Source: a virus
Direction: 5' to 3' (one strand)
Length of the DNA: 64,000 bases
Virus record (IMG/VR): IMGVR_UViG_3300031519_004559
A program made the position numbers and the translations under genes. Positions 1 through 5,704 of this stretch are shown piece after piece (within the stretch, counting starts at the first letter, position 1; each line of letters begins with the position of its first letter). The notes beneath the pieces were generated by a model. That model searched no databases. It was not told the DNA's origin and saw nothing but the letters and a program-made list of their open reading frames with translations.

Positions 1-339
1 TATTTCTAGTCCCATCTAATCTTAAAGTGCGCTTCATGTGAGTCTGCCACAGCCAAGACATTGGAAAGAGGTAATTTTTTATACACAAGTTCAATGGGCT
101 CTGACCTTTCCCATCCTCCGTCGACATCGCTTTTTACAGCTATCCCCCGCTTCGTTCCTAGTGCTAAAGGGTTTTTATGAACTATGTTGTGTTTTTCGAC
201 TGCCAACAAAACAATCTATATCAACCAGTGAGCCCAATTTGTTTGGTGGCTTCCTACCTCTGGGTAGTCGATCAATATGTACGTGTGCTTCTATACGAGA
301 GCTTTTTCCACAGCGGTAATTTAAACTGGCCCGCTAACC
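1..339 (-). ncRNA. Candidate structured non-coding RNA (truncated at window edge)
   Basis: No credible ORF. About 43% GC over 1-300 by hand count, in an AT-rich window. Nested complementary segments 312-316/331-335, 196-200/267-271, 202-214/239-250 (imperfect), 255-258/263-266, 95-101/230-236, 63-68/106-111. Strand inferred only from the upstream GIY-YIG gene. Confidence 0.5.
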
Positions 340-789
340 TTATGTGTTGGAATGTTTTGCCTGTATGTGATGTTCTAGCAATGCCTGTTTGAGCTTGTCT
401 GATCCGCCGACTCTAACATTAATGATTCCGTTGTAGTAATCATCTGTTTCAAGTACTCGCCTATCAAACTGTTCTCTTGCCTCTATGTAGGACATTTCGC
501 CCCTACCTTTACATAGATATAGAATTACTCGTGTAAACTTATCTGAGCCTAGTTTAGCAACATCTGCATTTAATCTGTCTGAACTACCATAATATGTCTT
601 CCAGTCTGATTCTTTAGTGCCGCGTCTTTTATTTTTTTTGCCTTTAAGTGGTGGCTTAGTAGTTTTAAATTTTGCTAGTTTTTTGCCTACGTATTTTTGG
701 CCTGTAGTGGTGTTGGTAATGAGGTAAACAAAGCCTTCATACTCGTCTGGTATTGTGTCTATTGTCTTCCCTTCGTAAGTCCACTGCAT
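340..789 (-). CDS. GIY-YIG family endonuclease (catalytic domain only)
   Basis: GFVYLITN...KYVGKK motif, YYGSS, conserved Glu (YIEAREQ) and YYN. Confidence 0.85.
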   Translation of the reverse strand: MQWTYEGKTIDTIPDEYEGFVYLITNTTTGQKYVGKKLAKFKTTKPPLKGKKNKRRGTKESDWKTYYGSSDRLNADVAKLGSDKFTRVILYLCKGRGEMSYIEAREQFDRRVLETDDYYNGIINVRVGGSDKLKQALLEHHIQAKHSNT

Positions 790-794
790 GAGTA

Positions 795-800
795 TACTTA
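795..800 (-). promoter_or_regulatory. Putative late promoter TAAGTA upstream of GIY-YIG gene
   Basis: GGTAAGTA 5 nt before the ATG at 789; same motif as upstream of structural genes. Confidence 0.45.
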
Positions 801-806
801 CCGTGC

Positions 807-1022
807 CTATTCAGTTTTATTGCCTTTTATGGTTTTTTTAGTTGTTACATGTTTTTCGTGTATTTCTTCCATGCGTAATTTTGCTAATCTTCGTATTTCA
901 CGTAACCATCTTCTTACAGAAGCGTGTGTACGCACAGAATTACGAGCTTCAAATTTGTCATTTTCTTTAAAATACTCCATATACGCTTTGGTTAATTGGT
1001 CGTGTATATCATCATTAATCAT
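807..1022 (-). CDS. Small basic helical protein, histone H1-like (Hc1-like) candidate
   Basis: 71 aa from MINDD (ATG overlapping hemC stop, ATGATTAA); K/R-rich helical pattern ...ENDKFE...VRRWLREIRRLAKLRMEEI. Confidence 0.5.
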   Translation of the reverse strand: MINDDIHDQLTKAYMEYFKENDKFEARNSVRTHASVRRWLREIRRLAKLRMEEIHEKHVTTKKTIKGNKTE

Positions 1023-1752
1023 AATACACTGCCCGTAGCGTAATAGGGTCACTTCCTGTTGCATGTGCTGCTAGTGCCGTATGACAATCGCCTCCCATGC
1101 CCTTTAAAAATGCACGTTCAACTTGCGCCTGAGCAAATGTTTTTGCATGATTAATTTTTTTAACAATGTTAATAACTTCAATATCGTCTTTTCTAGTTTG
1201 CAACGCAATTACTCCTTGCCCAACGGCAGGAATAGTAGGAATTCTCATCCATGTACGTCTAATATCTAACGCTTTTAATCCTGCTTCAGCTAGTATTATA
1301 GCATCATATTCCGCATTGTCAAGTTTTTTTAATCTAGTATCAATATTACCACGAATGGGTTTTATTTTAATATCTAAATTTTTATATAATTCTGTTAGCT
1401 GTGCAATTCTTCTTGGACTGCTAGTTCCTATGGTACACCCAAAACTAATTTTTCCTAAAAGTACATCATGTGGACTATTACGTTTAAGCATTGCAGCAAT
1501 AATTAAGTCAGGATGTTCTTCACCGGGCATGTCTTTTAAACTGTGTACTGCAACGTCAATTTCTTTATTATGTAGCGCAACTTCAATCGCGCTACAGAAC
1601 ACTCCCTTACCGCCTATTTCGTGAATAGGCACATCTGGATTTAAGTCACCAGCAGTTTTAATAACAACAATTTCAGTATCGCACGGAAGTTCATTGCACA
1701 CACGATTTGCGTATGCAAGTGCTAAATTACTTCCTCTAACACCAATTTTCAT
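1015..1752 (-). CDS. hemC: Porphobilinogen deaminase (hydroxymethylbilane synthase), C-terminally shortened
   Basis: IGVRGSNLAL, GGKGVF, DVAVHSLKDMP, GTSSPRR, IRGNIDTRL, YDAIILAEAGL, PAVGQG, ERAFL...GGDC (cofactor Cys). Confidence 0.95.
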   Translation of the reverse strand: MKIGVRGSNLALAYANRVCNELPCDTEIVVIKTAGDLNPDVPIHEIGGKGVFCSAIEVALHNKEIDVAVHSLKDMPGEEHPDLIIAAMLKRNSPHDVLLGKISFGCTIGTSSPRRIAQLTELYKNLDIKIKPIRGNIDTRLKKLDNAEYDAIILAEAGLKALDIRRTWMRIPTIPAVGQGVIALQTRKDDIEVINIVKKINHAKTFAQAQVERAFLKGMGGDCHTALAAHATGSDPITLRAVYYD

Positions 1753-2030
1753 TATTTTCTCTCAATATACATGTCTTGGATTTTTTTGAATAGTGGAATA
1801 AAAACAAGACCTATAATACAACCAAATGCTGTACCAAATGCTAATTCCCAACTTGCTGTAGTTGCACCACCCATAAAATCACTCACAGCATTGCCGATAC
1901 CTGCACCAATTACTGTTCCAATTCCCTTTTGAAATGCCTTAGGCAAATACTTTTCAATAGATAACCCTGTCATGGCTCCTAAGATCATTATTGCATTGTC
2001 GACTATTCCAAATATTATAAAATCAATCAT
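1752..2030 (-). CDS. Small multi-pass membrane protein, TMEM65-like
   Basis: Three hydrophobic segments; FGIVDNAIMI, GAGIGNAVSD and GCIIG.....P match remembered TMEM65 family motifs (FGFLDNAIMI, AALGNLVSD, GCLLG..P). Confidence 0.65.
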   Translation of the reverse strand: MIDFIIFGIVDNAIMILGAMTGLSIEKYLPKAFQKGIGTVIGAGIGNAVSDFMGGATTASWELAFGTAFGCIIGLVFIPLFKKIQDMYIERK

Positions 2031-2037
2031 AAAATTC

Positions 2038-3810
2038 CTATTCTATTATTTCAATATCGTTTGCGTAGCTTGTGAACCCATTTTCCTTTACTACTCGCAT
2101 CACATGATTAACTCGTCCGATAAGTTCATCTTTATGTGATATAAGATATACATTTTTTTCTCGTTCTCTGCCCATCTTCTTAAGAACACTTAGAGAACTT
2201 TCAACTCCGGCAGTATCCATGCCACTGTCAATTAACTCGTCGATAAACAATAAGTTAATGTTCTGATACAAACTTTCCCAAACATCACGGAATGCAAAGC
2301 TCATACCAAGTATAAGTCTATTGCGTTCACCACGTGATAAGTTGTCAAAGTCTAAGTCTTGACCCAATTGAGTAATTTCAACATTTAAGTCGTTTTGAAA
2401 TACTACTTGATGTGGCAAACCTAGTTTTACAATATAGTATGTAAGACGATTATTTAAGTACGCCAAGTTTTGTTCAATAATTTTTTTACGTATAAAGCTA
2501 TCTTTATTAGTTAATAGTTTATGTAAGAATTCTTGATGCTCTTTATAATCTGTAATTTCATTAACTGTAGACCAGTTAATGTCTTGCATAGCTGAGTTGT
2601 TAAGTTCGTTGATCTGTGTTTCGTACGGATCATTTTCAGTTTCTTTTGTACTTAGAGCTTGTTTTAAACTGTCAACATTTTGCCGATGATCAAATGCTTC
2701 TTTAGCAGTTTCATAGAACGTAGTAGGCTTGCCGTTAATGTCGCCTATGTCTTTAAGGCCCTTTACAACGTCAGTTACCTTAGTAGTAATCTCAGACTGG
2801 TATGCAATAGCATCAGCAAGTTCTTTAGTTTTACGATCTGCTATTTCTGCTTTTTTGTCTGCATGTAGTTCTTGACCACAAGTATAACAAGTAGCATCAT
2901 CTAAATCTGCGATATCTTTTTGTGCCTTTTCAACAGACCTGTCTGCACGTTGTAGTGCTGGTTCTAATGTGCTTAATTCTTTTTTAAGAGCCAAAATAGC
3001 ATTATTATGCGCTGTCCAGTTCTGCAATCTTTCATGAGAATTTAGTTCAACATCAATGTCTAAGTGTTCTAACTCGTCGATTGCTTTAGATAGCTTTGTA
3101 ACGTCTTGTTGTTTTTTTGATATCCAGGCTCGTTGTGTTTTTCTTAAACTCTCAATTGTACTTTCAATTTTACCATTGGCACTTTGTATTGCTTCGATTT
3201 TAAGTGTTTCTTGAGTAATTGCGTCCTTGCTCAATTTCATCTGTTCTTTTAAGCCTTCGGCTTTTTCAGACAATATTGTAATACCTAACAACTGTTCAAT
3301 AATAGCTCGTTGATCATTAGTGCGCATACTTAAAAACGGTTCTGTGTATGTATTCAGCGCAACAATATGTTTAAACATATCGTGTGACATGCCTAACAAT
3401 GTATTAATTTCTTCTTGTGTTTTGCGACTGTCACCTTGCGACTCGTCGGTCATTTGTTGCTCTTGATTATTAACAAAGAATTTAAGCACATTAGGCGAAC
3501 GTCCTCGTTCAATCCTATAATCCTGTCCGTCTTTTTCAAAGTGTAGCGTAACTAGCATACCTTTTGAATTAGTTTTGTTAATTAAGTTGTTTCTTTTAAT
3601 GTTTGTAAGAGCAACACCGTACAATGCATAGCTTAGTGCATTAATGATAGTAGTTTTACCTGTACCATTTCGGCTTCCACTATCGTCACCGCCTTGGTCT
3701 AAGTTTTCACCTAGCACAAGGGTCAGTTGTTCTTTATTAAAATCAACTGCTTGAGTCTGATTACCAACACTCATGAAGTTCTTTACGGTTAAATCTTTAA
3801 TACGTATCAT
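2038..3810 (-). CDS. gp46: gp46-like recombination endonuclease subunit (SbcC/Rad50 ATPase)
   Basis: VKNFMS, Walker A NGTGKTT, coiled coils, CYTC zinc hook, LSRGE signature, LFIDE Walker B, ISH. Confidence 0.95.
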   Translation of the reverse strand: MIRIKDLTVKNFMSVGNQTQAVDFNKEQLTLVLGENLDQGGDDSGSRNGTGKTTIINALSYALYGVALTNIKRNNLINKTNSKGMLVTLHFEKDGQDYRIERGRSPNVLKFFVNNQEQQMTDESQGDSRKTQEEINTLLGMSHDMFKHIVALNTYTEPFLSMRTNDQRAIIEQLLGITILSEKAEGLKEQMKLSKDAITQETLKIEAIQSANGKIESTIESLRKTQRAWISKKQQDVTKLSKAIDELEHLDIDVELNSHERLQNWTAHNNAILALKKELSTLEPALQRADRSVEKAQKDIADLDDATCYTCGQELHADKKAEIADRKTKELADAIAYQSEITTKVTDVVKGLKDIGDINGKPTTFYETAKEAFDHRQNVDSLKQALSTKETENDPYETQINELNNSAMQDINWSTVNEITDYKEHQEFLHKLLTNKDSFIRKKIIEQNLAYLNNRLTYYIVKLGLPHQVVFQNDLNVEITQLGQDLDFDNLSRGERNRLILGMSFAFRDVWESLYQNINLLFIDELIDSGMDTAGVESSLSVLKKMGREREKNVYLISHKDELIGRVNHVMRVVKENGFTSYANDIEIIE

Positions 3811-4817
3811 AGTTCGTTATAAATGTCCAATAGCATCTTTTTGTTAAAGTTTTCAGATTCAATAGCAGATATTTCACCACTTACAATCTGGTCTACACTT
3901 TCAAAATGTTGTATGTCGATATCTGTTGATATTTCTTCCATTTGTTTTTGAGGAATAAGTGCTATCTCTCTACACTTATATTGTGTAACGAATGTTTCTT
4001 TAATAAACGTTGCTTCTTCAAAAGAAATTGGAACATCTATAGTAACACGCAAATACATATTGGGTTTAATAATGTTATCAGTATCTTCTAATAACTTCTT
4101 CAGCCCAACAGTTCTATACTTAGGGCAGTCTGTCCAGTTAAGATACACAGGTTCTTTATCATTTTCTCTATCAAGTATCATCATGCCACGGTCGTCATCC
4201 CATGCATCAGCATAATTGTGCGGAAATGCATTACCTAAGTAATGTACTACACCTTGTTGCTGACGTTTGTGGAAGTGTCCACTAAACACATATGATTGAT
4301 TACTAAAGTCTTCTGCACGTAACTCGCCGTGATCGGGCATTTGTACCATAGCATTCATATAGAAGCTAGGTAACTCAAAATGCCCAAAAACATATTTGCT
4401 TTTTAACTTTCTAAGTTTCTTCCATTCGTCGCCTACTAACCAAGGAACAATAGTAACGTCCTCAATTGTAGTAATTTCGTCGATAAATGTAATACCCGGA
4501 ATATGTTTAGCAAATGCTGTACTGTTAACGTCACGTTTGTCTTTGTAATACAAATCGTGATTACCATCAAAGAAGAAGAACTGCTCAAAGGCGGCTCCTA
4601 GCTTTTCCATACTACGAATAGTAGCATCCATAGTAGTTAAGTTTAAACTATTTCTATTATGATGCCAGTCTCCGCAGAAGATGCCAGTCTCGCAACCGGC
4701 AGCTTGTGCTTCTTTGATATACCAGTCAATAAAGTCTTCACAGTCCTGATTGTGAACTTTGCTATTACCTTTTAATCCTAAGTGGATATCGGTAAAAACT
4801 GCCGCTTTTTTAAACAA
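3807..4817 (-). CDS. gp47: gp47-like recombination endonuclease subunit (SbcD/Mre11)
   Basis: TDIHLG, GDWHH, GNHD, GHFE, SGHFH metallophosphoesterase motifs; adjacent to gp46; TTG start. Confidence 0.95.
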   Translation of the reverse strand: MFKKAAVFTDIHLGLKGNSKVHNQDCEDFIDWYIKEAQAAGCETGIFCGDWHHNRNSLNLTTMDATIRSMEKLGAAFEQFFFFDGNHDLYYKDKRDVNSTAFAKHIPGITFIDEITTIEDVTIVPWLVGDEWKKLRKLKSKYVFGHFELPSFYMNAMVQMPDHGELRAEDFSNQSYVFSGHFHKRQQQGVVHYLGNAFPHNYADAWDDDRGMMILDRENDKEPVYLNWTDCPKYRTVGLKKLLEDTDNIIKPNMYLRVTIDVPISFEEATFIKETFVTQYKCREIALIPQKQMEEISTDIDIQHFESVDQIVSGEISAIESENFNKKMLLDIYNEL

Positions 4818-4847
4818 TGTATGTTATCCTTAGTTAGCTTATCTTTT

Positions 4848-4876
4848 ATTATACTTGATTGTGCTTCAGAAGTCAA
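4848..4876 (-). promoter_or_regulatory. sigma70-type promoter for the gp47-gp46 operon
   Basis: TTGACT (4876-4871) - 17 bp - TATAAT (4853-4848) in the intergenic gap. Confidence 0.8.
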
Positions 4877-5704
4877 CTATTTTTTAACTCTATTTGCTTC
4901 ACGTTTCATTTGATTTTCCCATTCTCCTTGGGATTGTCTAGTGTAGCTAGGATTTAAGTGATTCATTTCTAAAATGTCATCTCGTATATTTTGATTACGC
5001 TTTTCGATATTAATAACTCTTACAAAGGAATTTGTTACAGCCGCAGTGTAATAAGCAAAAGGATTAGCACTCTTAGATTCGTCAAACTGTAAGCCAATTT
5101 GTGCTAATTGTAATATAGCTTGACCTTTCATTTCGTCGTTGTAAGTATATCCACGTACATTGCCTCTTGTAGCATATCTTTCACATAGTTTTAGCCACAT
5201 GTTTGCAAGTTTGTTAGTTGCCTTGCCACCTTTCAATGTAAAATTGCCATTATCCATGCCGCCTTCCCAATGACTTTTACCTACTAGTATAAGTTCGTCG
5301 TGTTCGTTATACTTGTAATGGTTAAATGGTGGAAAGTTTAATTTTACCTTCGTGTCTGCTACTGTCTTTGGATTCTTTTTTCGTCCGGGCTCTTCCGGAA
5401 TGTGGTCGTAAGTCATAACTCGAAAGATAAGTTCTTCTTTGGTAATCTTTTTATAGTCTACTTCACACTCTGCTTGTTTTATTTTCTTACCAGCTAATTT
5501 TGACGCTTCAAATGCTTTTTGACTTAGTCTTTTAGCTTTGTTACGCTTTGCTTCCGCAATAGTTAGTCTGTTAATCTTATCTACACCAAGTAGAATCACA
5601 TCGTATTGATTGTACTCAGGATCCACATAACTACAAAAGGTAGCTTTGGATCTATGTATCTCTAACAGTATATCTTTGTTATTTAAATAATTGACTTTTT
5701 TCAT
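4877..5704 (-). CDS. gp55: gp55-like sigma factor for late transcription
   Basis: N-terminal NYLNNKDIL, RGYTYNDEM, FDESKSANPFAYYT...NSFVRVINIEKR; canonical position next to gp47/gp46. Confidence 0.9.
   Translation of the reverse strand: MKKVNYLNNKDILLEIHRSKATFCSYVDPEYNQYDVILLGVDKINRLTIAEAKRNKAKRLSQKAFEASKLAGKKIKQAECEVDYKKITKEELIFRVMTYDHIPEEPGRKKNPKTVADTKVKLNFPPFNHYKYNEHDELILVGKSHWEGGMDNGNFTLKGGKATNKLANMWLKLCERYATRGNVRGYTYNDEMKGQAILQLAQIGLQFDESKSANPFAYYTAAVTNSFVRVINIEKRNQNIRDDILEMNHLNPSYTRQSQGEWENQMKREANRVKK

Follow-up and report, generated by a model that had tools for sequence, protein, structure and literature searches.

A membrane protein of 92 residues, encoded in a 64,000-nucleotide stretch of viral DNA (the window; IMG/VR record IMGVR_UViG_3300031519_004559), is, judged by its profile match and its conserved residues, a member of the TMEM65 family. 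It represents a phage-borne member new to a known family. The best explanation of the observations, to which we give a probability of roughly 55%, is that the protein is a stand-alone TMEM65 core that would work as an autonomous, small oligomeric cation exchanger in early or middle infection, and that is spread as a mobile single-gene cassette.

TMEM65 has been reported to drive Na+-dependent Ca2+ efflux from mitochondria and to show exchanger activity in vitro. Published accounts of its role are in dispute, several groups describing the exchanger itself and one a regulator of NCLX. The bare 90-residue core found here keeps the residues that are essential in human TMEM65, and so provides a small and easily expressed test object for this dispute. 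If the exchanger reading is true, the role of mitochondrial TMEM65 could be settled on the phage protein as a minimal and tractable model. The auxiliary genes of marine phages gain a candidate for ion homeostasis as well; in these phages the TMEM65 core is abundant, and it is also present in a bacterial clade mostly devoid of an NCX-type protein. The value of the finding rests on the minimal core as a test object and on its spread in marine phages, not on a link to heme or iron. The literature searched makes no mention of a phage or bacterial TMEM65.

The gene and its neighbors

The TMEM65-like gene occupies 1752..2030 on the minus strand, with an ATG at 2030..2028 and a TAA stop at 1754..1752. 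It belongs to a minus-strand string that consists, in order, of a gp47-like SbcD subunit (3807..4817), a gp46-like SbcC/Rad50 recombination nuclease subunit (2038..3810; phrog_77, E 1e-100; Pfam SMC_N and AAA_23), the TMEM65-like gene, hemC (1015..1752), a small conserved ORF (807..1064) and a SegE-type GIY-YIG homing endonuclease (340..789; Pfam SegE_GIY-YIG, E 6e-36). The gp47-like ORF adjoins gp46 in all related loci. The small ORF, taken from the ORF listing and supported by homologues, is the downstream anchor of a variable slot that the endonuclease flanks. The hemC gene specifies a short form of hydroxymethylbilane synthase of 245 aa (Pfam Porphobil_deam, 209 bits). Of the C-terminal domain this short phage form keeps just the first part (Porphobil_deamC is below cut-off), yet it scores 259 bits on TIGR00212.

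Direct reading of the junction between gp46 and the TMEM65-like gene (2031..2040, minus strand) shows the gp46 TAG stop (2040..2038) overlapped by a Shine-Dalgarno-like AGGA (2039..2036), which is separated by a 5-base gap from the TMEM65-like ATG. At the other end one base is common to the TAA stop and the hemC ATG (1752..1750), forming TAATG. The sequence confirms what had been predicted for this ORF, namely a 92-aa frame at 1752-2030 with a stop that overlaps the hemC start and with the motifs DNAIM (residues 11-15) and GNAVSD (residues 46-51). For the small ORF the listed length of 85 aa is probably over-extended; translation is more plausibly begun at an internal Met at 1022, giving 71 aa and an 8-nt overlap with the end of hemC. 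The ORF is called at 57-71 aa in identical contigs, and homologues of 65-72 aa begin at MSDI.DDIHDQ.

The DNA has a G+C content of 35%. The best cultured relatives of its gp46 are only about 47% identical, which points to an uncultured marine T4-like myophage as the source. Megablast of window positions 1-5000 against phage records gave no match. No terminator-like sites were found on the minus strand between 200 and 6000, and promoter-like sites were not enriched over shuffled sequences.

Membership in the TMEM65 family

The protein matches the Pfam family PF10507 with 31.1 bits (gathering cut-off 25, E 2.5e-7), residues 2-58 aligning with profile positions 4-55 of 109. Nearly half of the relatives (29 of 61) also match PF10507, the only family to recur among them. 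Four residues (G8, D11, D51 and G70) are invariant in the 61 relatives, four more (N12, N47, S50 and C71) are conserved in at least 90% of them, and G54 is invariant in the close set.

Several of these positions can be compared with human residues of established importance. D132, D167, G170 and E178 of human TMEM65 are needed for its effect on mitochondrial Ca2+, and the D132N, D167N, G170L and E178 mutants are inactive (Vetralla et al., PMC12830682). The human motifs used for comparison are translations of the mutagenesis primers given in that paper. In the first transmembrane helix the human PFIGFGFL-D132-NAIMIVA is matched by the phage FIIFGIV-D11-NAIMILG, and in the second the human AALGNLVS-D167-LA-G170-LGLAGY by the phage GAGIGNAVS-D51-FM-G54-G. 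On this alignment D11, D51 and G54 correspond to D132, D167 and G170. The case of E178 is different. E62 falls in line with it only in the ungapped register (G170+8 = G54+8), the primer-derived human sequence lacks the stretch Y176-E178, and position 62 is Pro in the copies of OM43 bacteria. The putative equivalent of E178 is not conserved across the prokaryotic and viral group. The likeness to TMEM65, originally proposed from the motifs, is nevertheless borne out by the match to PF10507 above cut-off together with the matching essential residues.

The resemblance to the eukaryotic proteins of the mitochondrial inner membrane lies in the three transmembrane helices, the FG..DNAIM of TM1 and the GN..SD..G of a glycine-zipper TM2. 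The phage protein is confined to this core of 92 aa and has neither the presequence, the N-terminal matrix region of about 110 residues nor the poly-acidic tail of eukaryotic TMEM65. A further difference is orientation. The N-terminus of human TMEM65 is reported to be in the matrix, whereas the phage protein is predicted to have its N-terminus out, which would be the reverse.

Other database matches were of little consequence. A Pfam match to FUSC_2 (21.3 bits, below cut-off) was dismissed as similarity between Gly-rich helices, and the best match in a PDB profile search was a non-significant Nramp-type chain (E 0.059). No TMEM65 structure was found in the PDB by profile search, and searches of PADLOC and NCBIfam with the TMEM65-like protein returned no meaningful match.

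Selection and predicted structure

The ORF at 1752..2030 is a real gene. A search of 5.8 billion proteins yielded 229 homologues of about 90 aa, and the identical TMEM65-like protein is present in 246 contigs. Purifying selection on the gene is strong. The dN/dS ratio is 0.04-0.15, with saturated dS, in 12 of 14 orthologue pairs; in the other two dS was too saturated for a value to be computed. The N-terminus is conserved, also in a copy started by GTG (locus L164). Copies in L043-L053 that seemed to be truncated to 78 aa are instead full length with a GTG start.

An AlphaFold2 model built from the 61-sequence alignment (pLDDT 91.9) has helices at residues 2-21, 37-57 and 61-91 and a short loop helix at 25-28. 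Hydropathy is consistent with three helices, the Gly/Ala-rich TM2 being weakly hydrophobic, and on both grounds the three transmembrane segments of the original prediction stand. TM2 has the spacing of a glycine zipper (G38/G42/G44/G46). Lys and Arg residues are found in loop 1 and in the C-terminal tail, acidic residues in the N-terminus and in loop 2; by the positive-inside rule an N-out/C-in topology is predicted.

Comparison of the model with known structures brought up only distant likenesses. Foldseek searches of the PDB and BFVD gave no match at E≤0.001, and an all-against-all structural search with VIA-align gave, among the best 50 matches listed, only generic three-helix subunits with Z of about 7. 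The best of these neighbors, with Z 6-7 across some 80 residues, are NuoK/ND4L and MrpC-like subunits of complex I and Mrp antiporters, which likewise have three helices and carry buried carboxylates inside cation- or proton-translocating complexes. Their rmsd is 5-6 Å, their identity 6-10% and their Z below the level that VIA-align considers meaningful for helical proteins. They have no sequence relationship to the phage protein and act only inside large complexes.

A search for longer or fused family forms gave one protein of 170 aa only. Rare fused three-helix cores were seen separately in P0165 (287 aa) and P0130 (220 aa), one with C-terminal ankyrin repeats and the other extended at the C-terminus by a soluble stretch of about 130 aa.

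Occurrence in other phages

The TMEM65-like gene is not restricted to the position after gp46. A second site was detected in T4-like marine myophages, where the gene stands between an unannotated gene of 387-452 aa in the gp14 position and gp15; it is represented by 13 IMG/VR loci on contigs of up to 285 kb. Podophages have the gene as well. In the cultured, T7-like Pelagibacter podophage HTVC109P it is gp04 (68.5% identical), located in the early region, before the genes for the integrase and RNA polymerase, and two uncultured Autographiviridae also carry it. In a tree of 76 copies with known context (92 columns, midpoint rooting, which gives no direction of transfer), the copies of the gp46 slot and of the gp15 slot are mixed in one cluster, with deeper viral clades outside. 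This mixing indicates repeated movement of the cassette from one site or lineage to another. The TMEM65-like gene is an independently mobile single-gene cassette.

Copies in OM43 bacteria

The distribution of the family is dominated by phages. The nearest ESM-Atlas clusters are 63-100% viral, and a scan that took one genome from each prokaryotic species turned up 15 loci, all in OM43-type Methylophilaceae. Genome contigs were scanned with the narrower of two alignments (A2), the other (A1) being too diverse. Strong matches were limited to four genomes, all small (1.3-1.4 Mb), in a sample of 101 Methylophilaceae, and to the center genome in a sample of 401 genomes of the phylum.

The OM43 homologue (for example in HTCC2181) has 90 aa and is 58-70% identical to the phage protein, with the same length and motifs. 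Position 62 sets the two apart, being Pro in OM43 copies and Glu or Asp in phage copies. The bacterial gene is chromosomal and its synteny is fixed: an Amidase_2 (AmpD-like) gene runs divergently from it, RDD and LptFG genes adjoin it, and it stands among the core genes AmpD, LptFG, PepA and HolC. In public records the family is mis-named 'N-acetyl-anhydromuranmyl-L-alanine amidase' or 'L-aminopeptidase/D-esterase-like' (OM43 L004-L008 and L201; KT997847.1; AP013540.1). The wrong amidase name seems to stem from the AmpD-type gene that runs divergently beside the homologue in OM43, and this propagated mis-annotation can now be corrected.

OM43 bacteria live in seawater with 10 mM Ca2+. A gene of the Na_Ca_ex family (PF01699) was not found in four of five OM43 carrier genomes (G002, G029, G061 and G078), which are drafts in which absence is not proof; a control search for PF01699 was positive in 11 of 14 reference genomes. 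The TMEM65 core considered here is thus carried by phages and by one bacterial clade, most of whose genomes lack an NCLX-type partner.

Independence from hemC

The original prediction also joined the small protein to hemC in a two-gene iron/tetrapyrrole module and likened it to the VIT1/CCC1 transporters. Co-occurrence of the two genes, named beforehand as the test that could refute the module, was therefore surveyed, and the linkage is not recurrent. In a gp46-anchored census of 79 related phage loci that have the downstream anchor, 62 have neither gene, 13 have hemC only, 4 have the TMEM65-like gene only, and none has both. Of the 62 IMG/VR loci in which a TMEM65-like protein was found, just three also hold hemC, all of them full loci with 100% identity to the window; one more locus of 100% identity (L034) breaks off within the TMEM65-like gene. 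Some 20 loci from the window's phage group, in which gp46 is 78-87% identical, have the order gp46, TMEM65-like gene, small ORF and segE, without hemC. Conversely, a hemC search provided 38 further viral loci with gp46, hemC (78-83% identical, 244-247 aa), small ORF and segE, without the TMEM65-like gene. The two genes are independent cassettes that share one variable slot, and their adjacency in the window is a coincidence of one lineage.

The idea of a VIT1/CCC1-like iron/manganese transporter forming a functional iron/tetrapyrrole module with hemC does have some points in its favor. The TAATG overlap is real, and the iron-related cargo of the same slot in relatives (hemE, hemF, hemC, SufE and a 2OG-Fe(II) oxygenase) is a weak thematic hint. 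Against it, beyond the census and the two sets of loci that hold one gene without the other, heme genes move together without the TMEM65-like gene (L167, L191), which elsewhere is found among neck/tail or early genes. The overlap itself has a simpler explanation. The TMEM65-like gene forms tight or overlapping junctions with whatever gene comes next; orf85, for example, overlaps it in L018, and gp15 starts at or one base past its last base in L077-L084. TAATG thus reflects phage gene packing and not functional coupling. Nor was the resemblance to VIT1/CCC1 supported by searches of profiles and structures. VIT1 has five transmembrane helices and a cytoplasmic metal-binding domain, and the only likeness to it is the presence of acidic residues within membrane helices. 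Pfam gave no match to PF01988 (VIT1/CCC1) at E≤1, the PDB profile search no VIT1 chain at E≤10, and the fold searches no VIT1-like fold, either with Foldseek at E≤0.001 or among the best 50 VIA-align matches listed. The module, which we regard as very improbable, is essentially excluded by the linkage data, and a tempting story of hemC and iron is thereby removed.

Proposed mode of action

If the phage protein is a TMEM65 core acting as an exchanger, it would be inserted in the host inner membrane as a 92-residue protein with its N-terminus out and its C-terminus in. Embedded in the membrane would be two invariant aspartates, one in each of the first two helices: D11 belongs to the FG..DN motif of TM1 and D51 to the GN..SD motif of the glycine-zipper TM2. 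Several copies could pack via TM2 into a small homo-oligomer, in which a ring of carboxylate, Asn and Ser groups (D11/N12/N47/S50/D51) would bind cations, and the oligomer would exchange Na+ (or H+) against Ca2+ or a different divalent cation across the inner membrane of the host. Transcription would occur with the early or middle gp47-gp46 string, and the protein may serve to stabilize the cation balance of the host in seawater during infection. The mobile cassette has landed in the hypervariable slot after gp46, where hemC is a second, unrelated cassette.

Most OM43 carriers have no NCX-type gene, and this favors a core that functions without a partner of that type. The position in the early region of podophages, and the gp47-gp46 string in the window, suggest early or middle expression, which fits ion homeostasis or host takeover and speaks against a holin. 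There are also caveats to an exchanger, as the match to PF10507 is limited to residues 2-58, E62 is replaced by Pro in the OM43 copies, the predicted topology is reversed, solved structures resemble the model only at the level of generic three-helix subunits and the role of human TMEM65 is disputed. A bolder version is offered tentatively and is less probable than the general proposal. The 90-aa core alone might suffice for Na+(or H+)/Ca2+ exchange. It would then be the smallest known secondary cation exchanger, spread by marine phages as an early gene that lowers Ca2+ in the host cytoplasm after injection, and adopted by the streamlined OM43 bacteria in place of a ten-helix NCX/ChaA-type exchanger.

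Apart from the iron module, two other roles have to be weighed against an exchanger. The protein might not transport at all and might share the TMEM65 fold by chance, acting as a holin or antiholin, in superinfection exclusion, or as a takeover factor that depolarizes the membrane. Its size, three transmembrane helices, predicted N-out/C-in topology and charged C-terminal tail (FKKIQDMYIERK) are typical of class I holins, the gene is overwhelmingly phage-borne, and in podophages it occupies the early region, as exclusion and takeover genes do. That same early position argues against a holin, however, and neither PHROGs nor Pfam gave a match to a holin or lysis family, the sole PHROG match (E 0.0026) being to a family of unknown function. 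None of the phage loci inspected has an endolysin neighbor; the neighbors are gp46 and hemC, the gp14-position gene and gp15, or early genes. The conserved chromosomal copy among core genes of OM43 is also hard to reconcile with such roles, and the invariant residues are exactly those needed for ion efflux by TMEM65. Context and the existence of a chromosomal orthologue in OM43 led us to reject a holin specifically, and non-transport roles as a whole seem unlikely. Slightly less likely again is that the protein modulates a transporter of the host as its regulatory or accessory subunit, in the way TMEM65 has been proposed to act on NCLX. One study does report that TMEM65 binds to NCLX and depends on it, and three helices are very small for a transporter. 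But other studies report TMEM65 activity that is independent of NCLX, a member of the CaCA/NCX family is absent from the same four of five OM43 carriers, and invariant buried aspartates suit ion binding better than docking. The stand-alone cation exchanger is preferred over both.

Other cargo of the gp46 slot

The junction between gp46 and the small ORF is a hypervariable cassette site. In relatives its cargo includes an 88-aa soluble ORF (L152:5270-5536), the Fe-S assembly protein SufE (L140:4270-4674), a NUMOD3 homing endonuclease (L195:3643-4404) and a 2OG-Fe(II) oxygenase (L164:3676-4308), the last placed after a TMEM65-like gene. The SegE homing endonuclease that adjoins the slot may be the driver of this turnover of cargo. 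Tetrapyrrole cassettes also follow gp46 (L167:5270-7775 and L191:5270-6990). Some consist of hemE (URO-D), hemF (coproporphyrinogen III oxidase) and a short hemC, others of hemE and hemC, so that in this phage group the phage-encoded genes of the heme pathway move together.

Within the hemC coding sequence of the window, at 1295-1322 on the minus strand, there is a perfect sigma-70 consensus (TTGACA, a 16-nt spacer, TG and TATAAT; 12/12). The small ORF and segE follow some 230-270 nt downstream of it and may be transcribed from it as an internal promoter.
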